Source: Botryllus schlosseri (taxonomy: Eukaryota). From it: DNA of 64,000 nt. The stretch spans positions 11,038,001 to 11,102,000 of the forward strand of contig CM119372.1 of the NCBI GenBank assembly GCA_051294905.1, read 5' to 3'. The position numbers and the translations under genes were made by a program. Each line of letters begins with the position of its first letter. Positions within the stretch are counted from its first letter, which is position 1. The notes under the pieces are model-generated. The model saw nothing but the letters and a program-made list of their open reading frames with translations, was not told the origin of the DNA and made no database searches. Shown here one piece after another: positions 1-42,198 of this stretch.

Positions 1-3000
1 CCATTGGGCCCATGCCGAATTGGAATCCGTTGTTTGCGTTGGCGTGAGCAATAGCGTCACCGCTTCCGTAGTGAGGTCCTCCGGCTGCGATCGCTTTAGC
101 AGCGGCGTTGTTTGCGAAGTTAAGGTTAATTCCGCCCATACCCATGCTTGCGAAGAGGTCGCCGTATTGTCCTTTGCCTCCTTCGGTGGTGACATCAACT
201 GCAAGATCGCTGTTGACGTGTGCGTCAGCGATAGCGAGAGTGTTGTCTGCTACATCGACATCGACGCCGTGACCGCCAGAATGATCACCGTCCACGTTGA
301 CGGCGAGTCCCATTGGGCCCATGCCGAATTGGAATCCGTTGTTTGCGTTGGCGTGAGCAATAGCGTCACCGCTTCCGTAGTGAGGTCCTCCGGCTGCGAT
401 CGCTTTAGCAGCGGCGTTGTTTGCGAAGTTAAGGTTAATTCCGCCCATACCCATGCTTGCGAAGAGGTCGCCGTATTGTCCTTTGCCTCCTTCGGTGGTG
501 ACATCAACTGCAAGATCGCTGTTGACGTGTGCGTCAGCGATAGCGAGAGTGTTGTCTGCTACATCGACATCGACGCCGTGACCGCCAGAATGATCACCGT
601 CCACGTTGACGGCGAGTCCCATTGGGCCCATGCCGAATTGGAATCCGTTGTTTGCGTTGGCGTGAGCAATAGCGTCACTGCTTCCGTAGTGAGGTCCTCC
701 GGCTGCGATCGCTTTAGCAGCGGCGTTGTTTGCGAAGTTAAGGTTGATTCCGCCCATACCCATGCTTGCGAAGAGGTCGCCGTATTGTCCTTTGCCTCCT
801 TCGGTGGTGACATCAACTGCAAGATCGCTGTTGACGTGTGCGTCAGCGATAGCGAGAGTGTTGTCTGCTACATCGACATCGACGCCGTGACCGTCAGAAT
901 GATCACCGTCCACGTTGACGGCGAGTCCCATTGGGCCCATGCCGAATTGGAATCCGTTGTTTGCGTTGGCGTGAGCAATAGCGTCACCGCTTCCGTAGTG
1001 AGGTCCTCCGGCTGCGATCGCTTTAGCAGCGGCGTTGTTTGCGAAGTTAAGGTTAATTCCGCCCATACCCATGCTTGCGAAGAGGTCGCCGTATTGTCCT
1101 TTGCCTCCTTCGGTGGTGACATCAACTGCAAGATCGCTGTTGACGTGTGCGTCAGCGATAGCGAGAGTGTTGTCTGCTACATCGACATCGACGCCGTGAC
1201 CGCCAGAATGATCACCGTCCACGTTGACGGCGAGTCCCATTGGGCCCATGCCGAATTGGAATCCGTTGTTTGCGTTGGCGTGAGCAATAGCGTCACCGCT
1301 TCCGTAGTGAGGTCCTCCGGCTGCGATCGCTTTAGCAGCGGCGTTGTTTGCGAAGTTAAGGTTAATTCCGCCCATACCCATGCTTGCGAAGAGGTCGCCG
1401 TATTGTCCTTTGCCTCCTTCGGTGGTGACATCAACTGCAAGATCGCTGTTGACGTGTGCGTCAGCGATAGCGAGAGTGTTGTCTGCTACATCGACATCGA
1501 CGCCGTGACCGCCAGAATGATCACCGTCCACGTTGACGGCGAGTCCCATTGGGCCCATGCCGAATTGGAATCCGTTGTTTGCGTTGGCGTGAGCAATAGC
1601 GTCACCGCTTCCGTAGTGAGGTCCTCCGGCTGCGATCGCTTTAGCAGCGGCGTTGTTTGCGAAGTTAAGGTTAATTCCGCCCATACCCATGCTTGCGAAG
1701 AGGTCGCCGTATTGTCCTTTGCCTCCTTCGGTGGTGACATCAACTGCAAGATCGCTGTTGACGTGTGCGTCAGCGATAGCGAGAGTGTTGTCTGCTACAT
1801 CGACATCGACGCCGTGACCGCCAGAATGATCACCGTCCACGTTGACGGCGAGTCCCATTGGGCCCATGCCGAATTGGAATCCGTTGTTTGCGTTGGCGTG
1901 AGCAATAGCGTCACCGCTTCCGTAGTGAGGTCCTCCGGCTGCGATCGCTTTAGCAGCGGCGTTGTTTGCGAAGTTAAGGTTAATTCCGCCCATACCCATG
2001 CTTGCGAAGAGGTCGCCGTATTGTCCTTTGCCTCCTTCGGTGGTGACATCAACTGCAAGATCGCTGTTGACGTGTGCGTCAGCGATAGCGAGAGTGTTGT
2101 CTGCTACATCGACATCGACGCCGTGACCGCCAGAATGATCACCGTCCACGTTGACGGCGAGTCCCATTGGGCCCATGCCGAATTGGAATCCGTTGTTTGC
2201 GTTGGCGTGAGCAATAGCGTCACCGCTTCCGTAGTGAGGTCCTCCGGCCGCCATCGCTTTAGCAGCGGCGTTGTTTGCGAAGTTAAGGTTAATTCCGCCC
2301 ATACCCATGCTTGCGAAGAGGTCGCCGTATTGTCCTTTGCCACCTTCGGTGGTGACATCAACTGCAAGATCGCTGTTGACGTGTGCGTCAGCGATAGCGA
2401 GAGTGTTGTCTGCTACATCGACATCGACGCCGTGACCGCCAGAATGATCTCCGTCCACGTTGACGGCGAGTCCCATTGGGCCCATGCCGAATTGGAATCC
2501 GTTGTTTGCGTTGGCGTGAGCAATAGCGTCACCGCTTCCGTAGTGAGGTCCTCCGGCTGCAATCGCTTTAGCAGCGGCGTTGTTTGCGAAGTTAAGGTTA
2601 ATTCCGCCCATACCCATGCTTGCGAAGAGGTCGCCGTATTGTCCTTTGCCTCCTTCGGTGGTGACATCAACTGCAAGATCGCTGTTGACGTGTGCGTCAG
2701 CGATAGCGAGAGTGTTGTCTGCTACATCGACATCGACGCCGTGACCGCCAGAATGATCACCGTCCACGTTGACGGCGAGTCCCATTGGGCCCATGCCGAA
2801 TTGGAATCCGTTGTTTGCGTTGGCGTGAGCAATAGCGTCACCGCTTCCGTAGTGAGGTCCTCCGGCTGCGATCGCTTTAGCAGCGGCGTTGTTTGCGAAG
2901 TTAAGGTTAATTCCGCCCATACCCATGCTTGCGAAGAGGTCGCCGTATTGTCCTTTGCCTCCTTCGGTGGTGACATCAACTGCAAGATCGCTGTTGACGT

Positions 3001-18000: not shown

Positions 18001-19790
18001 CTCCGGCTGCGATCGCTTTAGCAGCGGCGTTGTTTGCGAAGTTAAGGTTAATTCCACCCATACCCATGCTTGCGAAGAGGTCGCCGTATTGTCCTTTGCC
18101 TCCTTCGGTGGTGACATCAACTGCAAGATCGCTGTTGACGTGTGCGTCAGCGATAGCGAGAGTGTTGTCTGCTACATCGACATCGACGCCGTGACCGCCA
18201 GAATGATCGCCGTCCACGTTGACGGCGAGTCCCATTGGGCCCATGCCGAATTGGAATCCGTTGTTTGCGTTTGCGTGAGCAATAGCGTCACCGCTTCCGT
18301 AGTGAGGTCCTCCGGTTGCAATCGCTTTAGCAGCGGCGTTGTTTGCGAAGTTGAGGTTAATTCCGCCCATACCCATGCTTGCGAAGAGGTCGCCGTATTG
18401 TCCTTTGCCTCCTTCGGTGGCGACATCAACTGCAAGATCGCTGTCGACGTGTGCGTCAGCGATAGCGAGAGTGTTGTCTGCTACATCGACATCGACGCCG
18501 TGACCGCCAGAATGATCACCGTCCACGTTGACGGCGAGTCCCATTGGGCCCATGTCGAATTGGAATCCGTTGTTTGCGTTGGCGTGAGCAATAGCGTCAC
18601 CGCTTCCGTAGTGAGGTCCTCCGGCTGCGATCGCTTTAGCAGCGGCGTTGTTTGCGAAGTTAAGGGTAATTCCGCCCATACCCATGCTTGCGAAGAGGTC
18701 GCCGTATTGTCCTTTGCCTCCTTCGGTGGTGACATCAACTGCAAGATCGCTGTTGACGTATGCGTCAGCGATGGCGAGAGTGTTGTCTGCTACATCGACT
18801 TCGACGCCGTGACCGCCAGAATGATCACCGTCCACATTGACGCCGAGTCCCATTGGGCCCATGGCGAATTGGAATCCGTTGTTTGCGTTGGCGTCTGCAA
18901 TAGCGTCACCGCTTCCATAGTGAGGTCCTCCGCTTGCGATTGCTTTAGCAGCGGCGTTGTTTCCGAAGTTAAGGTTAATTCCGCCCATACCCATGTTTGC
19001 GAAGAGGTCGTCGTATTGTCCTTTGCCTCCGTCGGTGGTAACATCGACCGCGAGTCCGCTATCGACATGTGCGTCAGCGATGGCGAATGTATTGTCTGCT
19101 ACATCGACATCGACTACGTGATCTCCAGAATGATCACCGTCTACATTGACCGCGAGTCCCATTGGTCCTACACCGAAGATGAATTGGTCGTTAGCGTTGG
19201 CGTGAGCAATGGCATCACCGCTTCCGTAGCGAGGTCCTCCATAGCCGATGGCTTTAGCACCGGCGTTGTTTACGAGATTAAGGTTGATTCCGCCCATGCT
19301 CATACCAGCGAAGAGGTCACCATATTGTCCTTTGCCCCCATCGGATGTAACATCAACTGCCAAATCGCTATCGACGTGTGCGTCAGCGATGGCGAGAGTG
19401 TTGTCTGCTACATCGACATCGATGCCGTGACCGCCAGAATGATCACCGTCCACATTGACGCCGAGTCCCATTGGGCCTATGGCGAATTGGAAGTTGTTGT
19501 TGGCGTTGGCGTGAGCAATAGCATCACCGCTTCCGTAGTGAGGTCCACCGGATGCGATTGCTTTAGCACCGGCGTTGTTTCCGAGATTGAGGTTGATTCC
19601 ACCCATGCTCATACCAGCGAAGAGGTCACCATATTGTCCTTTGCCTCCGTCGGTGGTCACATCGACTGCCTGATCGCTATCGACGTGTGCGTCAGCGATG
19701 GCGAGAGTGTTGTCTGCTACATTGACATTGATGTCGTGTCCGCCTGAATGATCACCGTCCACATTGAGACCGAGTCCCATTGGTCCGATG
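1..19790 (-). repeat. Coding tandem array, 309-bp unit, ~64 copies in the window; unit protein [103 protein letters not shown]
   Basis: Strict 309-bp periodicity with no indels seen (shadow ORFs recur at 250, 559, 868...). Units are nearly identical except the ~2.5 units at 19040-19790, which are clearly diverged. Confidence 0.98.
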
Positions 19791-22700
19791 CTTACGTCTA
19801 ATAAACTATTTGCCATGGCTTTGGCACCACTTGAAATATGTCTCACACATTTATGAACCTTGCAGCATTCATCGGATTCCAACTCCATTCTTACGCATCC
19901 GGTGGGACAGGGAGCTTCCCCTACCTCCAGACAGTTGTTTTGATTACATTTACACTCGTATGTACTGCAGCAACTATCTAGTGGGTAGCTCACTAGATCT
20001 TCATAGAAATTACATATTGGTGCTTTTTCTTTACATTTTGTCACATCGCAGTCATCAGCAACAATCCTGAATGCGTAACAGCAGTCGCAGGATTTTTCTT
20101 TTACAACCATATACCCTGCTGGTGTTACTGGATATGGGTCACATGTTTTCGCTTTACATCTTACTTCATTGGCACTGTAGCAGGTACATATATCACATGC
20201 GTCGCCATTTTTGTACCAACATTCACCATAGCTTCTTTCAGTTCCAGTTTCATCCATACAAGTTGTTGTTTCCTCTATAACTATTCCTATGCCCAAGTCA
20301 CTCTCAACCATCGCTTCAGCTTTAAGATTGTTATCGATAATTGCATCCACACTGGATCCGATATCTGAACCTATATCTCCAAAAAGGGACAGTTGATTTG
20401 GCCCAAGAAGCAAGGATAATCCAATATCAGACTGGCTTTTTGCTATTGCATCCGAACTTCTGTACCCTCCATGTCCAGTTGTCATCGCTTTCGCTGCAGC
20501 GTTGTTGCCTAATCCAATCGTAATTGGTCCTTGGTGGAGACCCAGACCAAACCCTAGACCACGAGTATCTGATCCTGTTTCTACATCAACACCCACATTG
20601 CTTGTAAGACGAGCATCCGCATGTAAATCATTAGAAGAATCAACATCTACGGCCACATCGCTGCCACTACCTTGTCCAGACGATAAGTCCACGGATAACG
20701 CATGCGGTCCCATATTAAATAATAATCTGGTATTTGAAAGAGCAGTCGCCATCGCTCCACCACGTACGCACCTTCCGATTGGGCAACATGATTCTTTCTC
20801 TAGGACTTTCCTGGTACACCCTTCTGGACATGGTGGATTTCCTAATATTGGACAATTGGCTGTATCACAGACGCATTCGTAGGATGAACAGCATTCATCT
20901 ATTTTATAAGCAACTAGTTTCTGATATACACCGCATACCATAGGTTGAAACTGGCAAGTTGACTCGTCACATTCCTCAGATACTACCGTGTATACCTTGC
21001 AACAGCCATCAGAGTCTTTTTCGACTACCTTTTCACCAGGTCCGGTAGTGGGTGGATCATCACAAGCTATTGATCTTTGAATAATGTCACCAACATCTTT
21101 GCAAATATTCTCTATGCAGGCGTCACTTGGAACAGTCCAGCACTCGCCGTAAGATCTTCCAACCCCATTGGCATCAATGCAAGCATCTGCTTCAGTAATG
21201 ACTTCCACTGCAATGTCGGAATCAACACCAGCAACGGCACCCACTGAACTTTCCGATTTTACGTCTACATCAACATCGCTTCCTCCAATATCTGATAGGT
21301 GATCACCGATCGACATAAACATTCCACCATGGCCGAATTGTAATCCTAATCCTGAATCAGCATGTGAAATTGCAGTGCCACTTGGCCCATGTTGGCCACG
21401 CCCAGACATTGCACCTGCATATGCGACTGAGCCCAAATCCAACAACGATTCACCACGATTTAGGGATATCACTGCTGTTCCACCGCCACGCTTTCCTGAG
21501 TCTGTGGACACAGAAACGTCAACGTCACTGTCCACTTTTGCGGCTGCGTCAGCTTTTGTATCAGAGGCAACATCAACAGCAACTTCTGATCCAAGATCAC
21601 CTTTGCCAAGGTCGAAAATGGAGCCAAATAGACCACCGTGATTCACGATCGCATGTATTGATGCACCACTTTTCGCAGCAGCCTGATTGGTGTAGACGCA
21701 TTTTCCCACTGGACAGCAAGCGTCTTGGTCAAGCACAATCCTGGCACATCCTTCTGGGCATGGTGGATTGCCAAGTCTTGCGCATTTTTGCTCATCGCAA
21801 ACACACTCATATGTGAAGCAGCATTTGTCGAGTTTGTAGGAAACACAAGTTTCGTGCAGTCCACAGCTCAGTGGTGAGTAAGGACAACTCACTTCCTCGC
21901 AAGTGTCAGGTATCAGACGATATTCATTGCAGCAATCATCCACTCTCTCTTCAATTACCTTTTTCCCGTCTGGAATGTATTGTGGTGGCTCATCGCACAC
22001 CCGCTCCTCACATGCGACATTATTTGTATCAATGCAAGAGCAAATCATACAAGGATTTCCATATTTCGACCAGCTATCGCCGTAGCAACGTTCATGTCCT
22101 TGCTCATCTACACAAAGGGACGATTCAGATGCAATACTAACATCTACTGATCCTTTCACATCAGCCAACGCTTCGACCTTATTCCCAACGTCAACTGCAA
22201 CCTCTACGTCGCTTCCATCTTGCCTGTGGCCTGCGGTTGACAAAGATAAGAAATGCCCGCCAATGCCAAGTCCTAATCCGCTTGATGAGTCTGCTTTTGC
22301 TAGTGCATCTCCGTATATACCAGAACCAGATCCAGATCCAGCTGCATGTGCATCAGCAAGGTTTGATAAACCAATGTTGATGCCTCCAAATGAAAGATCG
22401 AAAAGTCCGCCAAGGCCGCTTGATCGTTGACCATCGGTAATCACATCAACTCCGACAGAGCTATCTACATGTGCATCAGCACTTACGTCTTTGCTGACGT
22501 CAACATCAACTTTAGTTTCGCTATCGCCTTTTCCGCCTTCTTCAAGACCAAGTGACAAAGAACTACCACCTAGGAATCCCAGAATTGAGGAAGATGCTGT
22601 CGCTGATGCTTTTGCCATGTTGACACATTTGGGAACTGGGCAGCATACTTCTGGGTCGACAACCACCCTCTTGCATCCTTCAGGGCATGGCGGATTGCCA

Positions 22701-23725
22701 AGAACCGGGCATCGGCTAGGATTGCATGCGCATTCATATTCACAGCAGCACTCATCTTCCTCTGTTGGAATTGCTACAACTTCTTCGTACAATTTGCAAT
22801 ACGGGATTTTTGAGCTACACCGAGAAACATCACACTCTTCTTTGACTATTCTGTAAGTTGGACAGCATCCATCGGTAATCTCCTCAACGACATAGTGACC
22901 TTCTGGACACATAGGATACGGGTCGCATATTTTTTTGGTACATCGGACACTGCCAGCGTTGTGACAGGTACATGTGTCACAAACATCACTTGCATACACC
23001 CACGAGTCGCCGAATCTCCTTTCATTGCCAACTTCATCAACGCAGCAGGAACCTTCGTCAACGATTGCTATTTCCAATGCAGTGGCAGCATCAACTTTAG
23101 CATCGGCTTTGATATCATTATCAATTTTGATATCAGCATCTACTTTTGATCCATGACCATAATCTCCATGTATGTTGGCAACCAAGTCTGCACCATGGAA
23201 AAGAACAGAACCAATGCTGTCAGCAATGGCAAGAGCCCCGGCACCGTGCATAGCATCTTTTTCGGCCGCTGTGTAACCTGCTTTCGCTTGTAATTTATTG
23301 GAGACATCGAAAAACATGGAGCCTAACCCGGCTGACAAGTGAGTAGTGAAAGCACCATTATCTTCTTTGGTGACGTCAACACCGATTCCAATGTCGCTTT
23401 TGATGTCTGCAGATGCATCAGCTTTTTGAGAAGTTCCAACATCAACATCTGCACCACCATCTCCGCCTTTTGATCCTTGGATCCCCAATCCTAAATGTGA
23501 CCCGCCAATATAAACTGACATACCACTGTTGCTATCAGCGTGGGCCCCTGAGCCTGGTGCTCCATGTCCAAATCCAGAATGAGCAATTGCAAGAGCTTTT
23601 GACGATTGACCAAAATTGAGGGATATACCAGATGGCACGCATCCTGCTAGGAGTTCTTCGGACAAAATATTGTTCCAGCAATGGTAACGGATGCAAACTT
23701 TGTGGTCACTTCTAACTTGTCCAGG
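1..23725 (-). CDS. Single giant coding exon (>=23,725 bp, >=7,908 codons), open to the window edge
   Basis: Acceptor attacag| at 23726-23727, phase 0 with the donor at 25238 ([24 protein letters not shown]). I translated 23725 to ~19700 without a stop, straight into the repeat frame. The repeat consensus has no stop in this frame, and the variants that create plus-strand TAG stops (6725, 13442, 16532) are silent CTC>CTA Leu changes here. It is probably absent from the ORF track because no stop codon falls inside the window. Confidence 0.9.
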
Positions 23726-26700
23726 CTGTAATAGGTTATGTTTGATGATGGATTCAATGAGGTAATCTATTTGTTTTTATTCACATCTTAACCTATAACC
23801 AATGGCTACGGAGGCTAATAGGTTTACCGCAAGTCTACTTGCCCAGAGCATACTGACCATGAGATGCTTCGATAATATGAACCAATTGATGCTTTTTCAA
23901 AATATTTCATTTTGTAGTACGTTCTCTGGGCGAGTTAGCTTACATAGGGATACCATACGTCCTCTTTAAAGAGGATTTGTCCTCTTTTTTGACTTTTTTG
24001 AAAGTGTCCTCAGAGGACACCCTTTTGCCCTCTTTTTTGAGATTTTGTCCTCTTTTTTGAGAATTTTGGTCATATTTATGGCAAAATTCGACTGAGACGC
24101 CTTGAATTAGAACCAAAGTGACGATCCGGCGGGTATTTCGGGAGCAGAGCGGAAAGTTGACCATTTTTGATATAGTCAACCGACCACAAAGTGGAAAAAT
24201 TTACCATTTTTTGAGAATTCTACTCCGGTTTTGCAAGTCTGAAAATTCTGAAAAAGTGTCCTATTTTTAGATTTCCAGAATATGGTCACCCTAGCCTATA
24301 TCCATGACAATCTAACGATAAATGACAACAAGCAGTGTGATCGTTTCCCACCAAAATAATCCTATTCGGACTCTCAATTTGACAATCTCATTAACAGACT
24401 ACCCATGACTTTACATTTGGATGTACTCATCTCTTATTTTAGAAAGTATTTCGCTGGAGACTTGGACCACCACAATTGGAGAATAAATAATTTTGTGCAT
24501 AACGTAAAGGCACTTTGTTATCCTTCTTCAGATCTTACTTTTAAATAATAATATGAAGGCTACTTCTGCAATCCTAATCTACTCAATTCGCTTTGGATTA
24601 AGGTTCGGCAAGAGTTTCGACTTGTAAGATGAGATAAAGTAGTGGTGAATCGGCTGGATTCTCAATCGATGCGTTATGTGTTTGAACCTGTGTCACGCCA
24701 AAGACTTGCTTGTATACTGGTTTCGACGGCTTACCGTTCCTTCGCATCTACAGAATTGCCAAACATCCGAATGGTGTAGACGATAATAAAGTGCCTTCCG
24801 TCATTAACTGTCCTTTAATACACATTGTGAGATAGGTATTGCGAGAGCAAACATGGTGTCACGTTGTTACAAAGTGTGCCAAATCAACAAGCACAAGCTC
24901 TGCATTGTGCAATGTGCATTTTGGGAAAAAAAATTGTAATACCATATTCACTGTATTTTGGAGTCAGCAATATTTTTAATTCATTAGTGCGCCGTGAGTG
25001 CTGATAAGTTTGCAATAAACAAGAACAGTTTGTGAACCGCTACATACATTTTATAATAAGCATTCAGTTATTTCGCGCTCACAACCCTGCACAAACAACA
25101 TTGCAAAGACGTTGCAGTTGATTGTCCCAAATGCACAATTGAATGAAATGTATCACACACAAAATCATAACGACTGATGCTTAAGCAATGAATGGAAATA
25201 TAATGTGATTGATAGCAAAGATAAAGAAATTGACTCACAGCTATGATGGTGCCATCTGCAATGATACATGGACACTCGGAAGTTTTGATGCAAGTGTTCG
25301 CATCACGGAGAGACTGTCCTGTAGGGCATTTTGTGTATTCTTCCCCACACGTATCAACACAGCCATTGCTCTTAGCTTGGGCACATTGGAATGACACTGC
25401 GCGATAGCAGTGACACATATCAGCACAAGTGAATGAGCAGCTCAGAACATTGTCTTTTCCGCAAGTGTCTGAAATAGTATACAAAATATATTTCTCATGT
25501 TGCTAATTTAGCATGGATGCGTGGCGCTGTAATTCAAACCAGACACCAGAAGGTACGCACCTACAAAATTATCATAGAGATCTTCGCACAAACCAGGAGA
25601 CAGCTCTGAAGGAGTGTAATCAAAACCACCTTCATCAGCCATACCACCACCGAGTCCATCTGGAATACACACATACAATTTGCATTTATCTCAACGCCAT
25701 CACCATTTCAATGCATTTTCATACCAGAGTCTTTAAGAGGTGTTCCACCTTGACTACAGGGAAATCCAAGACAGTGCACTGCTTTGTCCATGCAATAACT
25801 ATTTAATCATACAATGGATACAATTTACAATTAAATTTATTATACCAGTGCAATAATGTCTCTTACCAGCTTCTGCACTCATCGGACATAGATTCGATCT
25901 TTTCACCATCTGTGTAAGACACTCCATCAATAACATCGCAAACGCAGGTATCCATAGCTTCGCAAACTTGACCATCTGCGCTAGTCACCTGTTACACAAA
26001 AAATGATTTTATTATTTATTTTCTATGACTTGATGACATTTTGGTCCATTACCGTTCCTTCCGGGCAGCTACATCCCTCCACGCAAGCAAATTCACAAGT
26101 AAGTGCTACTTGCTCATATTCATTGTAATTACTGCAAGTCTTGGGACAAGCAGAGATGCAAGGTTCATATTCTCTCGATTTTCCATAACACATCAGTGCT
26201 GATGAAAAAACGAAGGGCAATTCATTAACACAAACATATAGTTCACATGACGTCTGCTGTCACTTGTGTTCAACAGGTGAGCTACTACAAACGAGTAATT
26301 GGCACCAGTTACAACGGCAATCAGATTAATAGCTTTACCTCCTAAATAACTACCTTATGCAAGACACGGGATAATCAAAGTGGACAAAAACAAGCAAAGT
26401 CATAATTCAATTGAATTGACTATCTGCCTTTACAAAAAAGACGTATATATCATTCAGATAACATAGGTGAAATTACTAAGTAATAACTGCACTGCGGAAT
26501 TAACATTTATCCTCACGAATCTAGAAAAGCCGAAAAACGTGATCACATTATCTTCCGTATCGATGGCTGCAAAAGCCTTTTTTACCGAAGAATTTGACTT
26601 ACCGCATAACGCAGCAGTAATGAAAAAAACACGAATAATAAGTGTCATAAACGACATTGTACGCTAAGCTCGGTATCACAAAACTGTGCCGCCTGAATGA

Positions 26701-29700
26701 ATGAAACAATTAATTCGTCGCGCCAGAACAACCGGTACTGGTCGCGCCCCAGTTCCTATCTTGTAATATTCCATATCATTACAAGTGTTGTTAGGAAAGA
26801 GATCAACTGACACTTATTAGTTTAAATAGGACTGGGCACAATGATTTGAGTACTCGAATCTAAATCTAGTATAAATTCTAATTTTTCTAGTCGAGCAGTG
26901 AGAGATGATATTTTCTAGTACAAAAATCATACGCTCCTTGCCACTAAGAGTTAATTTATCAGCGATAATTATAGTTTTCATATTGTTTTCACTGTGGAAA
27001 ATTGTACACCTCGATTGGTTGTATCACAACATACGAAACATCTAGTAACAAGCTACGGACGTTAGTGGAAATAATATTTATGTGAAGTCGTGATCAACCC
27101 ACAGCATTGTCACACAGAGCGCAATGAAATAGCTATGGTCGTTAAAAGAGTAATTAATCTTTAATGTGGTGTGGAACGGGCATTACATTCTATGTGGTCC
27201 CACAAAAGCTATTATTTTAACAGCGGCGCTCCGAAAGCTCGTGTAATAAATATAATTATTACTTTGCAAGTGGACGTTAAATAAGGTGTGAAAGCAACCA
27301 AGATCTTATTATGATAATTGATGAAACTTATCACTCACGACAAATGCTTTGTGATCTCCAGTAGATGTGTACTCCAAATCGATTACATTCTTGTGCATAG
27401 GCATGAATGGCTGTACAGACACATTCACAATCCCCGCCCATATCACATCCGCAAGCATCATAAACACAGGCATCGTAATATTCCATTGGTGGCACAAGTG
27501 CATGACATGGCTAAGAATATATAGGAAATCACATAGTGGCCTGCACACAGAAAATGTGTGATAGTTACTTACAGCAAAGACACTCCCGGTAAGAATTGCA
27601 CATTTTCGTTCAGCCCAATATTTTCGATGTTTGTTGTCAGCACAAATATCGGTAGTGGCACTTACAGCATCACTTCCAGTCAGGTAAGTCTATGAATAAA
27701 TGATTTGTTTTACTTGGTAACTTCCAATTAACCATTATACGTTGCTACTGAATTGCACTATTTAGGCAGTTATCAATGAATTTTAGAGTCCCAATATTCA
27801 AGGTATTTCATTATCTTTATCAAATTTATATGATGAAGATCATTTTAGCATGTGGTGCACTTTTGATATAGCATATATATTAGATACGTACCTTCCACGA
27901 GTTCACGAAAGTTATTTCATTAACTTCGATGGAGTCCTGTGGCGTTTTGAAGTCATTAGTTTCCAGCCCATCAAAGTTACCACAAAGACCTAGAAGATTT
28001 GAACAGAATAGTCGCGTAATACATGTATTTCAATTCACAAAATATCTCATACCTTCAACTAATCCTCGGTGGCTTGCATCTACACGAACAATTGTGGTGG
28101 TTGTTTTATCCCATTGAAGGGTAACACCCATATCCTTGGCTTTCACAAATACCCATAACCCAACGTATGAAATTTCAAATGATCCAATCTATGAAACGAA
28201 TATATATCCTTTTGAGAAGTAAAGTCATAAGAAAACATTCAATCACGTTCCGATTCATTGACTAAAATTTTTAAATTAATTATGATCCGTATATGAAAAT
28301 TTACCCTTCGTTCTTGAACTGCTTTTCCTCGGACCATTTCGACAAAATTCTCCTTTTTGGGATCACCAGTATGGACAGAGAAGATAACACGTTTGGAGCA
28401 AGTGTTTCCTCTTGTACCGCATACAACATTTTCAATGGAAATCTTGAAATGAATTCAGAGTTTAGTTATTATAATTAAAACGTACACCAGTCTACCAAAT
28501 AGTACCTTGAAATTGTGTGGGTTATCAGATGTTGATCTCACAAACGTAAACTCATTCGATCCACTGAATTGGTAGCGGGCATTGTCGAAAGTAGTGTAAT
28601 GTGAGTCACCATATGCTCTACAAAGGCCAGCACATTCCTCTGTTCCGCAACTCCAAACACCCGTGATACAGCGGCTGAAAGCATGAATTCACAAATGTTT
28701 CATTCATAGAGTAAAACTGGTTTCGACAGCATGATTCAATTTTCAGTAAGTTGATTCATGACCGGTTCAAGGTGGAAGTTCATATGCTTCTCGTCCTATA
28801 TTATCCGTTCCGAATTGACAATCCCAGTGTTCTTACGAACAAGAAAGGGTTGTGTATATTTTGAATTGATACGTCACTTTCAAAAAAGGTCATTTACTCG
28901 ATCCGTCATGGAATCAAGGTGAAATTTCGTAATCACATTGAGACTGCAATGGCCATTTGCCTTTGATAAGCAGATCTGAGTTATAAGCTTGATAGAACCT
29001 TGAATATGAATCATTTTACCAATTTTTCGAGGGCCTTGACTTGAATATAATATATCGAAAGGTGAAAAAATTACACACTACCGAAAATGTATGATGTTTT
29101 ACCAAGTATTGCAATCTTGTTGCATAGTCTCATCTTCGCCATAGCTTCTTCCTCCATGGTAGCACGGGCAAGCAGTTGGATTAATACAAGAGCTGGATGC
29201 CTCATCCCAAACATAACCTTCTACACACTGACACCCAGCAATACACTTGGTAATCTGGTAGTTAAAGCTTTTATATGAATACTTTTATGTGGATATCACT
29301 ACCACTGACTAACCTTTCGGTTAATAGTAGGCAAATGCATGTTCAGGCAGGTCCTAAGATCTGGATCCATGCAGCTTGTAAACTCTTGATTATCGGTACA
29401 AGTCAATTTAACAGGACAATCGTTATCGGTGCAAGTCCACTTTCCATGGTGACATTCACTGTAAAAAATATTTGGACATAAAGTTGATGTCGTTCAGTTT
29501 CATCAATCAAAATGATGTTTATCAGCAAGATATATTTAAACGTTTAATATACAATACATCTCACCAAACATTACAGTCCTGCATTCTGGTCTCTCCTGGA
29601 TCATAGAGAAGTTCTTTAAATATACAGGTACATTCGGCAACGGAGACGCAGTTTCCATTATAATCAAAAACCTTTCAAAAGAGTCACAAATTGACAAATG

Positions 29701-32700
29701 TTTTGTCTGGGTGGATCCAAAGTTATTCTATTGCCTCACCATTCCATTGGGACAAGTGCATCCAGGGACACATTGTTCAGAGCAGAGATCCTGAGTTTGA
29801 AGGGATCCACATGATACACCACAAGCATTGGCGCATTCACGGAATGTAGTGCCAGCCTCACACATGGTTTCGCCAGCTAAAGGTATTTCAAACGGTTTAT
29901 TTTAAAACTGTTGATGATATATCTGTATATTTATCAATGGACAATATCCGCGATTGTTTCTTTAGCCAATTTACATAAAATTTCATGACGTCACACTTTG
30001 GTGTACAATTGAAAAAGCTTGAAACTACCAATACATTTCATATCATTTTGACTTGTAGTAGGCATATATATGTACTATATTTGTAAGTATCTTGAAAGTC
30101 TTACCACACTCTTCAATTCCGTCTCTCCATTCCTCGATAACTACTCCAAGTTTGGAACAAGCAATTGCGTAATCAGAGATACTACGGCATTGTGCTTTCG
30201 TGTCTTCAGAACCGCAAATGTCAGCCATGCAGTTCTCATAAAACTGCCTGTAGTTCACAACTTCGTGGCAATCTGTTTCACAAAGAAGTGAGATATTGTT
30301 AATTCAAGGTGATCTCCTCGAGTTCATAGTTGAGATGTTGAATCAGCAAGAGATATTTAAAATATAATCACAGGAATAAAATCTCACTCGTGAAAGGGTG
30401 CGATGTTAGTCTATTACAAGCTTCACGGGCACGAGCCTTATACGCTTTGTGGATGTCACATGGCGAGGTCAACGTCAACGCAGTAGTTGGGAACATGCAT
30501 GTTCCGGTAACCCTGTTTTAAAAGTGAGTATAAATAGGAGAGTTATTCGTTTCAAGTAAATATTCTACCATTCATCTCCGAAATCGTTTGCATTTGCAGC
30601 AACATCTCCTTTTTTAGTCCAGAAATCATCTGTAGTCTGTCCATTAAAGTTGCCGCACATTCCTCTGACTTTGCTGCTCAGAGAAGGCTGTGCACGAATG
30701 TAGATACGATCTTTTCCGTCGAAAAGAATGGTCAAGCCGCTGTTGATGGTTATCTGAAAATGACATATTCATATAAGACAGGGAAGACCAACTTCTGTTC
30801 GATTGCGATAGACTGAGATAAATTTCAAGAACTCGCAACGCAATCGACCAGTTAGTCTCAGAAAGAAACGTCACAATGCGCCGTCTTCTGACACTTGTAT
30901 AGCATATTAGTTTTTATTCACCCTTTATAGATAAACCTCATCCACTTGGGAAGGAAATTATGGAGAGGTATTCGATTCTGGAAAACAGGGGGTGATCCGA
31001 CATACGAAACATCCCCTTGTCTACAGGCGACTGCTAGTAACACACACGTTTCGATAAAAGACATCAGCTGGAATTTTTTAAATATTATCAGTGATCATGA
31101 ACACTATAATTATGAACTTTCACTTGACTTGCGAAAGTATGAGAACTTTTAGCGAACCAGAAACCTACTCCTCATGGGCCGAAATCGGTCCGCGGACCAG
31201 CAGTTACCGACCACTGCCCTAAATGAAGAGCCCGAGGTTCACTTGCTGAAGGCTTTTCAACTCACTTTCGTCAAAAACCCACAACACATTATTATGACTA
31301 GATTGGAGTGAGCCTTACCTTGTAAAATTTAGTAGTGACTTTTTCCACAGCATAAAAGTAATTGTGGTAGGGCAAGAGTCGTTCTTCTCCCTTGATTTCA
31401 GCAATACCAGTATGCATGATCTTTGCTTCTTCTCCATTCACAGTCACGCTCAATGATCTATCACAGTCTTGAGCACTAAAGATCACGTATCAATAATGAA
31501 TGCGATTCATTGGACCACGATTATGTTGCCACATACCCGCAGGTTTTGATGAGTTTCACTTCAAACGCAATGTCTTGCATTCCTTCGCTTTGGGCAAGGG
31601 TATAGCTGCATTTCCCATTGAAGTCAAAATGTTTGCCATCGAATGTAGTAAAATGGTCGCCAACAGCCTTGCAAACTGCATCACACGTGTTCTTTGTGCA
31701 TACCCATTTTCCAGAGGAACACAAGCTGTTAAGTCACAGAGGCATGGCGATTATTACATAACCAAGCAATCATCGACTACCGGTATCTTCATTTCTTAAA
31801 TCGATTCCGATAGACTTTTGTGCTATTAATTATTATTTAGCATCTAATAATAGAGATTGTCCTAAATTAACGAGTTAAGCAGATCATCAGTTTTGCCTTT
31901 CCCATTAGATTCCAATATGATGTAGTTCTTTATTTACAATTGCACGTTTTAGAATTTAGAATTTTAGATGATATATTATATCCAAAATTCGGTGTGGTTC
32001 CATATTGATTTTGGCGGTGTTCCATACCGAAATAGGTTGTGAGATTTCGTATCGTACGCCTCGATGATGTCTAATTTTACCGCTTTCATTCAAGTATTTG
32101 TTCGGCAATATTATGTTTTCCAATGTCAATTTCACCACAAAATTACAAGCTGTATTTGTTGTGCAACAGTCTGTTTGGTCGCTAAAGGCTGAAATCTCGT
32201 ATGTTGTTCCGACGCCGAATTTCCGAGATTGCTATAGTCTTTGGTCTTCGAAGACCATTCAAATTGATGTGTTGGATTCCATATGGCATATCTGTTTGCA
32301 ACATTTGTTTTTTGTGATATATAGCACTGATTTTTTTTACTTGGCAGAGAGTATGAACGCACACCGAATTTTCCAATGTCTCATGAATGCAATCAAATAC
32401 AGATTGTGAGAGTCTTATGTCCGAGATCAATGTAGGTCATTCCATATATTTGTCTGCCTGTACAATGGGCTTGTAGATGAGAATATACATGTTCTCTATG
32501 GTGATTAATGCAATATAGTTCGATGAATTGTTCCTTATTCTTGACAACACTGAAAATTGCGGGATTTTCCCTAATTTTTGGATTGAATAAATTATACGGC
32601 TTTGGTGGATAGCATTATGCCCGAGCATCTCGACAACACGACAGTAGCAGCGGGCATCTCAAGGCATCCCCCACGGCACACCGCTTACACAAGCACTGTT

Positions 32701-34422
32701 CGAGTTAGACTCTAGTCTAGAGGACGTGTGAATATACGATGACGTCACATTTTCATGCCAGAAGATGAAATTATGACATCATCATCACAAAAAATCGCGA
32801 AATTGTAGGCCCTTGCCCCACCACCCAACCTTGTCACGAGCCGCCACTGGTGTTAGCTGCTGGTTTCACATATTAAAACATGGGTGAAATCCACTGATTC
32901 AGTATTTGATTAATTTAGATGAATTTATCCATGGAACTATCTATCCCTACTTACTACATACCATCTGTTGCAATCCCTTCTGATTCTGGAACCAGGGGCA
33001 TATTCTTTCCTTGCATATTGACAAGGACATTCCTTGCGGGTGACACAAGTTCCATTGTGAAGATAAGTACCTGCACAAAATTATCTTGAGAAGCTACAAC
33101 TAACTACAGCATATAATACAATACCATCTGGACAGTGACATCCTTCAATGCAGTGATCGTTTTCGCAATTGTAACTGGTGTCATAACAAGTCTTTGGGCA
33201 CGAAGATCCGCATGCATCATAGCATTGTTTATCCGGGCAGTTCATGGCTGGGGAATTATTAGCATTATTTAATGAATACAGTTGAAGTCAAGTATGGATA
33301 CATACCGCATCGGCCTTCATTCCTCCACTCCACAATAACACCAAAACGAGAACACTCTCGGAAGTATGATGCCATTGAAGAACATACACTATCATCATCA
33401 CCGCTATAGCAAACATCTTCTTTACATGCTTCGAAAAATGGTAGTGGGTTGATGACCTGCCAGTCAAAAGGATAAGTATATTGCATTATATATGTTTGTA
33501 TTATAATATAAGATATAATTTGATGATTGAAGAGAAGAAATAGAAAATACAAGACGGATTATCAATAAATGAAAACAGAGCCTGCTAAAATAACAAATAT
33601 TTATTTTCACAATCACCTGATGTTTTGAAAAGACGTACCCTGTTGGAAAGGTAATTGGCATGTACGAAAATCTGATTTACGAACATGCATGAAATCAATC
33701 AGCGTTGGGAGATATGGAAACCTACTCAAAACGTTGTATGCGTCCCTTGATTTTGGGAGCAAGTTTACAAAGTTGGTGATCGACTTGAAACTACAATGAT
33801 TAAATTTGATCATTCTGAAATCCAGGAAATCGCAACTCCATTGATATCTCGGAAATGTATAAATTTCTAATGTTTCAGTGACTGTTGGCACACACGAAAT
33901 TTTTGCATTAGTTGAAAGCTATACATGTGACCTCGTGATGCAGACATGCTGTTTTTGCAACAATATTTACAAAAATATAGAGCTCTCACATATTTGCATT
34001 TGGTGTCCAAAATGAATTTGCATCCCTGCAATGCCTTGGCAATGACTTTTCGCTTTTCATCGGTAGCCTTGCTGCAATATGTTTGTGAAGTGCTTGCACA
34101 AACTAAAAATGAATGCAAATCTTGATAACTCAATTGACTCCTCAATGCCGTTCGCCAGAATTACGTACCTCCTTCGGCCCACGAAGAAGCAAAGGTAGCA
34201 ACATTCTCAACGTCGGAGCCGTCTGGTTTTTTGAAATCATCATTGTGATCTTCATTGTAGCTACCACAGAGACCTTGAGTGCGATCTTTATAATCCTCAC
34301 CAACCTGTTGTTACACCAATAAAGTTAGACATTTTGCATTCGATGAATTTCAGATCCATATAGTTGACCACTAAGGTTCATAGAATGTGAGAAACCATGC
34401 TGCAACGCAGGCAAAGTGCTTT

Positions 34423-34455
<33 letters not shown>

Positions 34456-37400
34456 TGCTGATCAAATGGTCCTTGGTAATGTATGATACTTACTCTGATG
34501 TATACCGCTTCCCTGCCATCCCATTTCAAGTAGAAATCGCTTTGAGGATCTCGAATGACAATAAAGTCTGCCACACGTTGCATGAGAATTCCAGTCATGG
34601 AAGCAGGTAGTGTGACCTGAACGTCATCAGCGAATACTGCGGGATCACCATTTTCGGGGTCTCCCTTCAACTCCAAGACCAAATCTCCAATAAACATTGA
34701 TACAGTTCTGAAATATTGAAGTCGCGGATTAAAATCAAAAATTATAACGTAAGACGGAAGGATTCATTCCACACCCATATTAATTTATGACAGCGAATAA
34801 ACTAATAAGCATGCTATTATTTTTGTAACAATTATGACGTTATACCGAATTCAATAAGTCCATGAAAGTAACATATACCTTGCATGAGATATCCTACCAA
34901 GTACCAACTTGAAATTGTGTTGCTTAGATAAAATCAGTAAACTGCCTAATCATAATGATAAGTTTGTAGCGAAAGTGATCAAAAGGTCAGTTTTGTAAAG
35001 GGAAATTTTCAGATCTATGAGACTATACGTATGCACTCCTTACACTTTGGTTCTGGAAGGAATAACTCACTACTTGTACTACATACTGCACACGGATGCG
35101 GCATATACGACTGAAATCAAGTCGCGTGAATTAGAGAATGATTTTGGCTTTTGCGTTGGAAACTTATGACAATACCAATTGTAAAGAAGATATATCAACG
35201 TGTGTAACGTATACTACTATAGACTTGGAGTCAGACGGAGTCGGTCATTAAATCAGAAAAGAAAAATAGAACCTTTTCGTTGTAGTAGTACAGCATTATG
35301 AATAGGCATTACGTTTACATTTCATTACTGAAGATAAGTTCTGTAAATACAATATTTCATTTGGCCAACATTCAAAATAGTTACATCGAATTCAAAGAGG
35401 TATAAAATTGTAACTCCTTGCAGAAATGTGATTATAAATTGGTACTGAATTTTACCTTCTACAATTCAAGCCAGTGCAATCAGGTTGGTTTTGCATGGTA
35501 ACTGAAATGAGGTGGTCAGTATCTTCAAACAGAGTGTATGTGCATTCTCCAGAGAATCTGTATATTTTGCCGTCAAAGGTACGATAATGATGTTGTCCCC
35601 ACGTCATACAATATCCTGTTTGTTCAACAGGAGTGTCGTCTCTAGTGTAGATAGCAGTGACTGCTGCATAACCGTTTGGATCCACGGGGTCTGTTGTTTC
35701 TGCATTAGAAATTAGTTTGTGCCATCAGACATTGTACATTTTATTTTTTGCCTTTTCACTCACCAAGACACTTGGGCTTGATGTTGGGAGTCCAGCTTCC
35801 GCCTGCACACGTGAAATATTCGCCTGGCTCGATGACATCCAGTACAAAGCCTGGGTCACAATATGGTGTGCAAATATGTTTTGAATCCTTGATATCGCAG
35901 ATTATACGGCCATTGGTTGGTGATTCCATGTTGATACACCTTGCAATTGTAAGAGAGTCAAGACAAATAACACTTCAGAGCGCCCCTGGCATATATTATT
36001 TTGCAGTCGCTCACCCAGAAAATCAGTCAAATAATGGAAAATTACAACTAGAATAAATTTTAGGAGCATGTGTCATATGTTCAGAGATCAGAAAGTAGAA
36101 AAGTACTTAATGCTGACAAGCCTACTCTACTCAAGTGGTTTTGGTTCGAAGCTACCTTTGAAGTCAAATTGAACAATTTTTTAACGTCGGGGTGCTTACT
36201 GTCTACTTTTCGACTGCTTCCAATTTGGGTACGACAAGATTCCCTTGACGGGAATCTAGGATACAATTGTTTACTATGATTGAAGTTACTTACTTCTCAT
36301 ATAATTGATTTAATGATTTAAACTAAAGAGTAGTTTGGGGTGGAACACATTACTTGCAATTGTGTAGAATTTTCAAGTGAGTATGCTTGAGCAGAATAAC
36401 AAGTTCTGTAACCAATTTGCGTTCAAATTTGATCCCGCACAATCATCCGTTGCAAAAAAATATTTCGATTCACAACACAATTTAGCAGAACTCACTCTTT
36501 CTCTCCGAAAATGCACTCAGGAAACTCGCCCACCGCTGGTAGTGGTGGCGACCATTCACCAGACTGCATGTCGCACATGAACATGTGAGAGTTAACAGTT
36601 CGGAAGCCTTCACTGCACTTGATCGAACAAAGTTTAGTGTCACCGGTAACCATGCAATCAGACACGCCATTGACAGGCTCTGCTGCGAAGCAGATAATCT
36701 CTGCAAAGGGAAAACGCAAGTGTTGAGCACTATCGAATTTGTATACTTTCAAGGCAACTGGGCCCACTAGATAATCAAATACATCAAGTATTTGTAGCGA
36801 CTTGATAAGCACTGTGACAGTGCCACGTAGAGCAGTATGTTGTGAAGGATGACAAGTTTTCACATATGCAGTTTTTTTAGAAATAACATACATTACGCAA
36901 TTTCTAATGGGGGTACCTCGAAATAATGCATAATGTGAACACATATGAGTAATGTTTACATATACATTAGGGTTATGACTTGAAAAAAATTCAAAATTTT
37001 TTGTGTCCTGTAGTCACAAATGAGGAACTTTTGTGTCCTGATAAAATTATTTTTATCAAGTCATAACCCTAATATACATATATTATCGCAATGCTGGTCA
37101 AAGTATTCAACATTCCTGGTCAAGTACAAGGAGTAGTTGGCACTACAGTAAAAATAGAAGGCGACAAATTCTACTCGATACCAAGTAGAAGTAGCTATTT
37201 CGAAGATATACTTGAAGTACTTCAATTAGAAGGAGAATGTGAGAGGTGTGAAAAGTTCTCATGTAACTAGTTTCGAAAAGTAGTATTGGCATTCTGTTAA
37301 TAATCAATCAGAGGTGGGCTGCTTTCGAAATCGAGAGTTGCATCATTGACCAACAAGAAATGCCAAATGACATTGCAAATAGGTGCACTTCTCGAAAAGA

Positions 37401-40400
37401 TAATATTCAATTACTGCAACTACAGCAATTACAAAAATTACAGCAAAATTGATGCAAACACATCCCAAATCTACTTTTCACTTCACAATTTCCAAACTTG
37501 TTTCGCTTCAAAAAAGATTAGGTAGACGTGATATATATGTAAAACATCCTCTTGACTACTCCAGAGAATAGAAATGCTTCGTTACTGGCCATCTCCGACG
37601 GATGGCTTCGTTTTGTACAATGAAACTAATAAAGCTAATGCAGCTAATGAGAAATGTTCACACTGGGCAGTAGGGTTTTTCAAAAATTGCTTTTTTCGGG
37701 ATCCAGGGATCCACTGATTAAATTGTTATGTCGCTTGAAAAAGGCTGCACACCAAATTTGGCTCAATTCCAACCAGCCGGAGCCGCAGCAGAGTCAATTG
37801 AAATTTTTAAATTTATTATAAAAATGAAATAGTTTCTAATTTTAGTGTCAATGTCAACCCCATGAAATTGTTATGTGGATGTGGATTGTCATGTGGATGC
37901 CTAAAATAATGATTCATAATGATTGTTGCTCACATTCAGCCGGTAGAAGTGAAGTGATTGCAGTTGAAACTTGTGGATATGTAAAAATAGCATTGATGAT
38001 GGCTAATCCCAGAATCACGTGATGAAAAACTCAAATAACTTCGCTTCTACAGGTTGGAATTGCGTCAAATTTCTTTTGCATCGTTCTTATAGATAACTCA
38101 ACAATCCCATGGGGTTGACTGTATACTTCGAAAAAAAATTAATCAATTTTTTTTTAATAATTACAAAAATTCCAATTGGCTCTGCCGCGGCTTCGGTTGG
38201 TTGGAATGGAGCCGAATGTGGTGTACAGCCTTTTCTAAGCAACCTAACAATTTAATTAGGGAATCCCGGGAATCTGGACAACCCCACCGCGCAGTGCATC
38301 CTGGCGATCCTCTAATATGGTAAATAGCCACAGGTCATCGACAATGGGAGCTCGGCTTGACTTGCCTAATCTACTATTTCCTTCTACTGCCTTTGGTATT
38401 GAACAGAGGTGGTCAAAGTAGCCACCGTCGCTACTCAAGTAGAAGTAGAAGTAACGTCGGAATTTCTACTCAAGTAGAAGTAGGGCTGGTGGTTCACAAG
38501 TAAGTAAGTAAGTAGGTATTCTATGCTTATTTTTGCCTACAAAACTGAAAATTGTCAAGTAGAAGTAGAAGTAGTCTAAAATCATAACTACTTAAAAAGT
38601 AGTGTGAGTAGTCAAAATCTACTTCAAGTACTTCAAAAAGTAGAAGTACTTCGTTACTGACCACCTCTGGTATTGAAAACCTGTCCTTCTGCTTGAGTGA
38701 TTTCACCTATATGTAGTGCCATCAGTAATTACGTGTTAGTTACTAAGTTACATCTTGCAATTTCGAAAGTATAGTCATCTACGATAAACCGCCAAAAGTA
38801 TGCGCGCGCGCGATCCCTCAGCCAAATGTAGTGTTTGTAACTACTTACTTGAATACTTCTCAGACTTTGAAAATGTACTTCCACTTGAAGTAGCTCTGGT
38901 ACGTCTTGGAAATCACTGCTTCTACTTGTAATTGAATACGAAATTTTGGCTTCTACTTGCGTAACAACGCCAACTAGTGACTACTTTGACCTCCTCTGCG
39001 AGATACTCTCTCCTATCTGTTATTAATTGTACTTTTTGTGATCGTTGACAACATGTTGATTCTGGATTCAGTTCGAGATCATGGATTGGGGTTTTGAATT
39101 GCGAAAACATTTTGTGCAAGAAATTCGGGATTAGGTTTCCATCGAAAAGTCACCTTGAGCAACGGGAAATTATGTTGATACCAGTTAAAATTGGAGCGAC
39201 AAATGTATCAAAGAAATGGTAATAATTTACGTCTGCACTCCAGACGCTTTGGTTCCACGTCCCAGGTGTCGGTACTTCTGTCGCAAGTGTATACACGGGT
39301 ATCATCAGTTTCTCCAGAATCGTCTTGGACAAATTCGTAGCCCAACTTGCATTTGGCGGTACAAGTTCTAAATTAGAAAACACGGTTACTTTCCGGTCCG
39401 TATCTACTTATGGATCGCGTACGTCTTATCTCCTTCTGTTGCGCAATTCCATTCCCCGTGTTTTGGCGCTACGGGTACGGAGCAGGGGCCTGAACGTAAA
39501 ATGTCAAGAATGAGTAATTTGCCAACATGTATGTATTATGTAAGCGCTCTACTCAACGCTATATCGGGAACCTGTGATGACCAAGTTTTACATGATATTT
39601 CGAATTATTATTTTAAACGACTTGATTATCCATCAAAATATTGATTGGTTGATGTAAAGTTGGATCGAAGTCAAAGTAACAATTGATATTAGGAGTGACC
39701 TCGCAGCGATTCGGTTTGTCGGCATTTTGCCAAGCCTTTGCTACCATTATTCTGGAAAAAGGGCCCGTCATATATATATTTCAATTTGACATATATTTGG
39801 AATGTGTGTAACGTCGCATGCTCGATTATGTCGTCATTGAAAAATAAATGGCAAAACAATGGTGGAATTTAAAATCAATGCGCAAAAGAGCGCCCTGACC
39901 ATTCACTAAATTATTCCGTACCCGTTTATAATTGTAATATATTCAATATAGCAACGCTATTACAATCGCAATGATATAACATCGGCTAGTAAAATATGAA
40001 AACACGCACGATAACAGACGCATATGTGACTTGAACTGACTTCATTATGTGCAAGGTGACATTATGTACGGACAAGATTGAGATCTTCACTATCGTCGCA
40101 GTGAGGAATGAGAAAATCACGCCATTCTAGTCTACAGACGCGAGTCACAGTTACAGAATCTGTATTTCGCGTGGTAGGACATTCGGTAAGTTTGGAACTC
40201 AAAACATGTGCGAGACGTGAAATAAAGTGACGTTTGCAGTATGCTATGTGTTATGGTGGAACGGAAAAATTTTCACAATGCAATGAATATATAATCCGAT
40301 ATCCCGAAACGTTAATATATGGCTGAACAGTCATTATGACATAAAATGAAAATCACAAATACGTCTGCGTGATAGTTTTGCCGATCAGTAGCCCGGAACG

Positions 40401-42198: not shown

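Follow-up and report, generated by a model that had tools for sequence, protein, structure and literature searches.

The gel-forming mucins MUC2, MUC5AC and MUC5B and von Willebrand factor (VWF) are the closest described systems to a giant gene of the ascidian Botryllus schlosseri, part of which lies in the 64,000-nucleotide (nt) stretch of DNA analyzed here (hereafter the window; C2:11038001-11102000 on contig CM119372.1 of assembly GCA_051294905.1, which comprises 495.5 Mb in 219 contigs). The mucins share with this gene a D1-D2-D'D3 ... D4-VWC-CK chassis (CK, cystine knot) and a giant central repeat exon, and, like it, have no furin site after D2. VWF, whose multimerization requires CGLC motifs, has D assemblies, VWC modules and a cystine knot in common with it. 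Among tunicate proteins, Ci-GFM1 of the gut envelope membranes of Ciona is built on the same D1-D2-D'D3-D4-VWC-CK scaffold, but it is the product of a different gene, with 2,880 amino acids (aa), chitin-binding and other domains, a 50-aa proline-, threonine- and serine-rich (PTS) stretch and no array of the 103-aa units that dominate the Botryllus gene (PMC6109156).

The Botryllus locus is a real, transcribed gene with a full gel-forming-mucin or VWF chassis. It spans about 134 kb of the minus strand (C2:10946490 to about 11079800), of which the window contains the 5' ~40%; the analysis also took in a further 98 kb of C2 below the window, 162 kb altogether. The encoded domains follow the order sushi-like modules, D1, D2, D'D3, central repeat exon, VWC, D4, VWC and cystine knot. 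The predicted protein of ~38,800 aa is composed of a head of at least 1,512 aa, ~35,797 aa encoded by the giant exon (3.5 MDa by itself) and a tail of ~1,540 aa, the last figure being an estimate from alignment to the C-terminus of a Ciona protein. About 92% of the predicted protein is encoded by this one exon of near-identical repeats.

The giant exon starts at window position 23725 (C2:11061725) and ends at C2:10954333 at the consensus donor AA/GTAAGT (the slash marks the exon border), a length of 107,393 nt. Inside the window, the minus-strand frame is open from base 23665 to the first base, where it runs off the end after 7,888 codons; past the window, it continues to a total of 35,778 codons without a stop and 334 in-register units, and an independent genome search returned an open frame of 35,815 aa. 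Tandem Repeats Finder reports a single array at 1..19791 with a period of 309 bp, 64.0 copies and 98% matches, and its translation yields 64 units, all 63 spacings of which are exactly 103 aa (40 of the 64 units are identical, and 18 distinct sequences occur). The residue composition of the window array is G 18.4, A 17.2, D 9.9, N 9.6, V 7.8, H 4.8, S 3.9, T 3.0 and P 1.9%, with no Cys or Trp and with Arg rounding to 0.0. An earlier note on this DNA, written from the window sequence, had described 64 copies of a 103-aa unit of such composition as a non-PTS, Cys-free central region within one giant exon, and both statements are borne out; the array of at least 6,600 aa that it reported is real, but its size was underestimated about five-fold. 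The G+C content is 56% in the array versus 37-40% in the flanks. Each spacer between the VWC-like modules that precede the array consists of one full unit and the first ~47 residues of a second.

These features separate the gene from both of its closest models. Unlike the gel-forming mucins, it has no PTS domain, no N-glycan sequon in the unit and no GDPH motif (none in the head model, the giant exon or any frame of the C-terminal 18 kb); no CysD domain was seen, and VWC-like modules lie inside the central exon. Because the PTS domain is absent (S 3.6, T 3.3 and P 2.0% over the whole array), the gene is not filed as a mucin. Unlike VWF, it lacks a VWA domain, CGLC motifs and a furin site at the D2/D' border.

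It is possible in principle, but improbable, that the gene is real while its 334 units are not, the array being mis-assembled (expanded, collapsed or scrambled) or a length-variable tandem repeat that encodes a several-fold smaller or larger protein. The units are 98-99% identical, and 333 of them comprise 136 distinct DNA variants and 98 distinct protein variants, the commonest DNA variant occurring 63 times; the RNA and DNA contigs, being short, give no independent measure of the length, and an inversion in unit 271 could be an assembly error. Against this stands the ordered substructure of the array, which falls into B-type, mixed and A-type regions, the mixed one with blocks of several units that occur two to three times, as is expected of a resolved long-read assembly. 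The 162 kb are free of N bases, and the array shows no stops, frame breaks or changed unit lengths. Furthermore, one open reading frame (ORF) of a second species encodes at least 61 units, and a paralogue in the same Botryllus genome has an open frame of 20,568 aa, which indicates that very long arrays recur. The inversion itself (unit 271, C2:10973739-10974047) is a perfect 118-nt segment, identical to the reverse-complemented repeat at 118 of 118 bases; whether real or an assembly error, it keeps the frame open and brings in Cys, Trp and Arg.

Judged from its pattern of variation, the array frame is under purifying selection. Relative to the consensus of 333 units, there are 98 distinct synonymous and 111 distinct nonsynonymous variants over 71.7 and 237.3 sites, respectively, giving a dN/dS of 0.34 when distinct variants are counted, 0.36 when every occurrence is counted and 0.39 when only singletons are. 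No nonsense variant is observed where 3.8 are expected (P about 0.02). Opposite the array, the plus strand contains ORFs of 2,241, 2,228, 1,026 and 1,067 aa (window 2-19747), which mirror a stop-poor repeat rather than represent separate genes.

Transcription of the gene is documented by the raw run X23 and by contigs of the runs X1, X4 and X9, which come from three studies and were placed on window positions 19800-39799. The runs X1-X14 carry the label 'RNA?', a guess; X1, X4 and X9 are treated as RNA because their contigs are spliced. All 15 listed joints are GT..AG introns on the minus strand and occur in contigs of each of the three runs (39 further joints are not listed), and together they link the sushi-like, D1, D2, D3 and post-D3 exons with the start of the giant exon at 23725, whose joint to 25239 is likewise present in the contigs of all three. 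The depth of X9 is ~146-169 over the unique part of the giant exon, which is covered in pieces, versus ~25-66 over the D1/D2 exon bins, and one X9 contig passes 19800 into the array. The earlier note had named transcripts that splice out or end before the array as the outcome that would overturn it; since spliced contigs connect the head with the giant exon and reach into the array, this is not the case at the array start, which is the part that the RNA covers.

It is very hard to credit that the mature product lacks the array, either through removal of a giant intron-like segment or because the locus is a decaying gene. Read evidence is absent over the array interior and the 3' junction, as such a product would require, but RNA contig depth over the unique 5' part of the exon equals or exceeds that over the head exons, contigs extend into the array, and the frame remains open through 107 kb with signs of purifying selection. 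In addition, six ORFs from other assemblies (P0002, P0003, P0004, P0009, P0010 and P0012) end at the same place in a VWC module, which fits a conserved intron there. In all four runs, several intron stretches of the gene (window 23802-24468, 26470-27136 and 37142-39142) exceed the exons in read depth several-fold to more than 10-fold and contain many loose ends; such stretches probably represent copies of interspersed repeats that are abundant and transcribed.

The N-terminal head was scanned with Pfam on 31 minus-strand ORF pieces. VWD matches were obtained in six pieces, C8 in three and TIL in four. Three VWD-C8-TIL assemblies are arranged in order between window positions 35724 and 27331, and extra TIL/E-like exons, corresponding to D' (TIL'-E') and drawn from the splice model only, lie between the second and the third; the D1-D2-D'-D3 head proposed in the earlier note is thereby confirmed. 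The combination of RNA-supported introns and splice model gives an open head model of 1,512 aa, in which borders lacking RNA support are provisional. Earlier splice-model runs were discarded for containing spurious micro-exons or skipping real VWD exons, and the run that was kept retains all Pfam-supported exons. The Sushi match for the modules preceding D1 is sub-threshold (E 0.0026; 18.6 bits versus a cut-off of 20.7). After D3, a Pfam TIL match falls on the ORF piece 26023-26259, and the post-D3 exons are colinear with the N-terminus of Ciona XP_078495661.1. A (TG)n-type microsatellite, translated as CVCVCV, occupies window positions 34416-34460 just after the D1 VWD exon that ends at 34494, and reads appear to be cut there.

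The best alignments of the third C8 exon are to the corresponding C8 of MUC2 and MUC5AC (also the third), all nine Cys being matched; the D3 linker exon aligns to MUC2 D3 with every Cys matched, and the solved sequence closest to the third C8 is that of MUC2 (7pov, E 2.7e-24). The VWD domains of the partly modelled head end in QGLCG, RGMCG and LGLCG. No furin site was found after D2 in the same head model, in which the only RX[KR]R match is RIRR, inside D1. Pfam gave no VWA match among the scanned selection of 31 head and 15 tail ORF pieces, and the central exon is likewise without VWA. The Cys spacing around the two D3 cysteines that form the intermolecular bonds of VWF appears to be identical here.

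At the 5' end, the transcript extends beyond a 27-nt micro-exon, and the additional letters are not those next to it in the genome, which points to either a spliced leader or one more exon. No credible first exon was recovered with the three letters that precede the micro-exon in the contig. The start codon that the earlier note had placed at 42198 is not supported because that exon is out of phase with the RNA-supported micro-exon. Farther upstream, window positions 44559-46672 (minus strand) encode the pol region of a long terminal repeat (LTR) retrotransposon with reverse transcriptase and RNase H domains and the zinc and core domains of integrase; a separate ORF at 53281-54708 (minus strand) also encodes a reverse transcriptase.

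On the 3' side of the giant exon, the exons at C2:10946490-10953475, scanned with Pfam as 15 ORF pieces, continue on the same strand. They complete the interrupted VWC module, add one more degenerate unit and then encode VWC modules, VWD-C8 (D4), more VWC modules and a cystine knot, with matches to VWC, VWD, C8 and Cys_knot (the last with E 5e-12). D4, VWC and cystine-knot exons, for which the earlier note had recommended inspecting the adjoining DNA, therefore do lie downstream of the array, and the full mucin/VWF chassis is present. The tail exons are colinear with the C-terminus of XP_078495661.1. For the orthologous Ciona protein (P0027), the closest solved C-terminus is MUC2-C (7qcu, E 5e-25), and the VWF CK domain (4nt5) was also matched.

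Table. Features of the giant VWF-like gene in the window (positions are those of the window; in joints, a slash separates the two exon borders)
Feature	Position	Strand	Evidence and remarks
Micro-exon, 27 nt	41762-41788	-	Loose end of an X9 RNA contig located in the window; joined to 39489
Three sushi/CCP-like Cys modules before D1, four exons	39423-39489, 39231-39367, 36496-36700, 35764-35939	-	RNA joints
D1 assembly	32962..35699	-	Pfam; RNA joints 34707/35456 and 33456/33991; splice model
D1 exons	VWD 35456-35699, 34494-34707, 34169-34304; 33990-34102; C8 33306-33456; TIL 33125-33247; E 32962-33070	-	
D2 assembly	30105..31725	-	Pfam; RNA joints 30753/31319, 31475/31537 and 31725/32962; splice model
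D2 exons	VWD 31537-31725, 31319-31475, 30569-30753; 30418-30512; C8 30105-30272	-	
D2 TIL/E and D' (TIL'-E')	29103..29876; exons 29740-29876, 29565-29671, 29314-29458, 29103-29254	-	Pfam TIL; splice model without RNA check
D3 assembly	27339..28674	-	Pfam VWD and C8; borders part RNA, part splice model
D3 exons	VWD 28506-28674, 28305-28442, 28053-28188, 27892-27989; linker 27573-27689; C8 27339-27510	-	
Five post-D3 exons, TIL and E-like Cys-rich modules	25239-25468, 25561-25659, 25725-25798, 25867-25988, 26053-26198	-	RNA joints
Intron before the giant exon, 1,513 nt, GT..AG	23726..25238	-	RNA joint; contains a repeat of very high read depth
5' part of the giant exon: five VWC-like Cys modules (~140 aa) alternating with degenerate unit copies	19787..23725	-	
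Array part in the window, 64 x 309-bp/103-aa unit	1..19786	-	Array continues past base 1 to 334 units

Sequence comparison identifies LOC445660 of Ciona intestinalis and a Styela 'von Willebrand factor-like' gene as orthologues of the Botryllus gene. The best long match is XP_078495661.1 ('uncharacterized protein LOC445660', 4,887 aa), which is 37% identical in the region encoded by the beginning of the giant exon, and its C-terminus is matched best by the C2 locus and not by the paralogous locus on C11. Both proteins have VWC-like modules alternating with Gly/Ala-rich spacers, units 103 aa apart and a C-terminal VWC-D4-VWC-cystine-knot order; the Ciona model differs in having ~20 units rather than 334 and in lacking the D1-D3 head. 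A profile iterated from the window units places the Ciona units at 1787, 1890, 1993, 2096 and 2199, each exactly 103 aa from the next, and converges on the spacers of all relatives found. Five further ORFs recovered by word-index searches, with 33-38% identity, show the same alternation of module and spacer, and a 6,326-aa ORF of another species carries 61 units with a period of 206 aa (2 x 103, the halves being 45% identical) and ends at the same VWC-module point. Public annotation of the C-terminal part reads 'von Willebrand factor-like' in Styela clava, where the tail is 42-75% identical per exon along the main alignment, and VWF or CTCK-domain protein in two Ciona species. The public orthologue models are fragments, the Ciona model starting after D3 and the Styela model inside the last repeats, which suggests that the giant-exon genes of this family are systematically under-annotated.

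The claim of a new class of secreted protein in the earlier note was too strong, because clear orthologues with the same repeat exist in Ciona, Styela clava and other assemblies and ascidian VWF-like genes are already endostyle markers. The repeat module and its scale appear to be undescribed, and the gene family and the chassis are known. No description of the 103-aa repeat or of the size of these genes was found by literature word searches, which cannot prove absence. Two other loci of the genome are related. The C11 paralogue (C11:14854627-14924796, plus strand), also VWF-like, contains in its 20,568-aa open frame 96 copies (99-100% identical) of a 212-aa unit with 8.5% Cys and no Pfam match, followed by VWC/VWD/cystine-knot exons; the 103-aa unit profile does not match C11. 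A third locus (C2:6736753-6745941, minus strand) gives weaker matches to the VWF-like C-terminus, with E values of 1e-10 at best, and is probably another multi-VWD gene.

The 103-aa unit carries 11 Asp, 1 Glu, 2 Lys, 0 Arg and 5 His per copy, which corresponds to a pI of about 4.2 and about -10 charges, and it yields only one tryptic peptide of practical size. As the earlier note had surmised, it matches no named domain: no Pfam family was found, with only sub-threshold noise (DUF3181, Fil_haemagg_2) at E up to 10; a Protein Data Bank (PDB) sequence search with the unit profile gave one match, at E 0.9; and an ESM Atlas search with three units returned no usable match. Alignment of the unit profile against itself with hhalign detected no internal sub-repeat. 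The RTX or beta-roll pattern GG.G.D.[LIVFYM]. does not occur in the unit, which has only one GGHGVD. A profile of 13 units searched against 1.84 billion proteins at E <= 0.001 gave 20 matches, ~14 of which are family members by inspection; the other six (P0018, 19, 22, 23, 24 and 26; E 9e-11 to 2e-4) are bacterial-looking, Thr/Gly/Ala-rich sequences that were judged compositional by eye only.

Whether such a unit folds is a matter on which the evidence divides. The array may instead be intrinsically disordered and act as a polyanion free of glycans, swelling into a gel in the manner of a 'protein mucin' or cation sponge; its period would then stem from unequal crossing-over, an alternative that is tentative but to be taken seriously. 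The absence of Pfam, PDB and Atlas relatives agrees with disorder, as does a composition of 35% Gly + Ala and 20% Asp + Asn. AlphaFold2 confidence is low both for 253 aa of the window array (22 rows; mean pLDDT 52, pTM 0.21) and for a 152-aa relative (19 rows; mean pLDDT 38, pTM 0.24), which weighs against a folded module. The second half of the unit aligns in other species to Gly/Tyr/Pro-rich loops that vary in length and sequence. However, the period is 103 aa here and in Ciona and 206 aa in the third species despite a unit identity of ~18-30%, G62 and the A-x-A pairs are conserved across species, and the dN/dS of 0.34 indicates constraint. The mean hydropathy of 0.50 lies on the 'folded' side of the charge-hydropathy boundary of 0.45, as it does for the units of two other species, and every spacer begins and ends with the same half-unit. 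Moreover, hydrophobic and polar residues alternate along the unit, a pattern that suggests beta-strands.

The best overall explanation, which is held to be probable, is that this full-chassis gene encodes a secreted, disulfide-linked polymer used most likely in the endostyle and the filter net. As in mucins and VWF, the protein would be secreted and would form tail-to-tail dimers through the cystine knot and head-to-head joints through D3. In the resulting disulfide-linked polymer, each monomer would add a very long, strongly anionic protein stretch in place of a glycan bottlebrush. Its most likely site would be the endostyle, and it may act as a fiber or matrix component of the pharyngeal filter net, whose fibers are 10-40 nm thick and enclose pores of 0.2-0.5 by 0.5-2.2 µm. 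The CiVWFL genes of Ciona were reportedly presented as endostyle genes by Sasaki et al. in 2003. Two other papers describe the CiVWFL genes as endostyle-specific in Ciona (PMC8462739) and VWF genes as markers of endostyle zones in the same genus (PMC13635237).

A number of results count against the proposal of a secreted endostyle polymer. CGLC motifs are absent from the ends of the D1 and D2 VWD domains in the partly modelled head, and neither a start codon nor a signal peptide was found in searches upstream of the head. Few X23 reads fall on the gene overall, and those that do back three joints with two to three reads each. RNA was checked at the array start only, which leaves room for splicing inside the array, and the array length rests on one assembly and is beyond the reach of short reads. 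LOC445660 could not be tied to CiVWFL1 or CiVWFL2, nor to KY.Chr1.1785 or KY.Chr10.1161, and the RNA runs have no tissue labels, so that expression of the Botryllus gene in the endostyle is presumed. Finally, a preprint reports that ascidian filters contain very little protein (4.4% N) and yielded no peptides specific to mucus, and it argues for a polysaccharide matrix; its peptide search used Ciona and Ascidiacea UniProt entries (10.1101/2025.01.21.634085). This combination of database and protease would miss the unit because it offers only one practical tryptic peptide and its sequence is species-specific.

The same polymer may act elsewhere than in the filter net, as tunic matrix, gut envelope membrane, wound or clot plug in the manner of VWF, or adhesive, which is regarded as unlikely though well within reason. 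The missing tissue information and the lack of a net-specific protein in the proteomic data of that preprint are compatible with such a site. So are the varied roles of the 17 multi-VWD proteins of Ciona, noted in a passage that gives no repeat or size detail (Lang et al., PMC4948705), and the presence of one of them, Ci-GFM1, in gut membranes (PMC6109156). On the other hand, Ci-GFM1 is set apart by its length, its chitin-binding domains and its small PTS region, and the present gene belongs to an orthologue family with members reported as endostyle-specific in Ciona (PMC8462739).

A bolder form of this proposal, which is doubtful at present, holds that the unit is a new folded beta-rich module and that the polymer of ~39,000-aa chains is the long-sought filter-net fiber, a non-glycosylated polyanionic rope whose repeat number would help to set fiber length or mesh size. 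It would also make the product the largest animal protein, its exon the longest coding exon and the C11 sister gene a second fiber type. The evidence for a silk- or amyloid-like beta structure, as the earlier note had imagined, consists of the alternating hydrophobic pattern and the conserved A-x-A motifs. The 107-kb coding exon exceeds any other that we know of. If the assembly is right, the predicted length of ~38,800 residues falls between those of titin and PKZILLA-1, which are encoded by multi-exon genes for a muscle and an enzyme protein, and would be second to PKZILLA-1 among the described proteins found. PKZILLA-1 has 45,212 aa and a 136,071-nt transcript and is about 25% larger than titin (PMC10862718).

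The composition of the filter nets of tunicates and lancelets is unsettled, and this gene provides a concrete candidate for one of their components. With two Lys, no Arg and a species-specific sequence in its unit, the candidate would be missed by standard tryptic proteomics against Ciona databases. In this gene, the mucin/VWF scaffold carries a protein payload instead of a glycan one, which bears on how mucins and VWF diverged.

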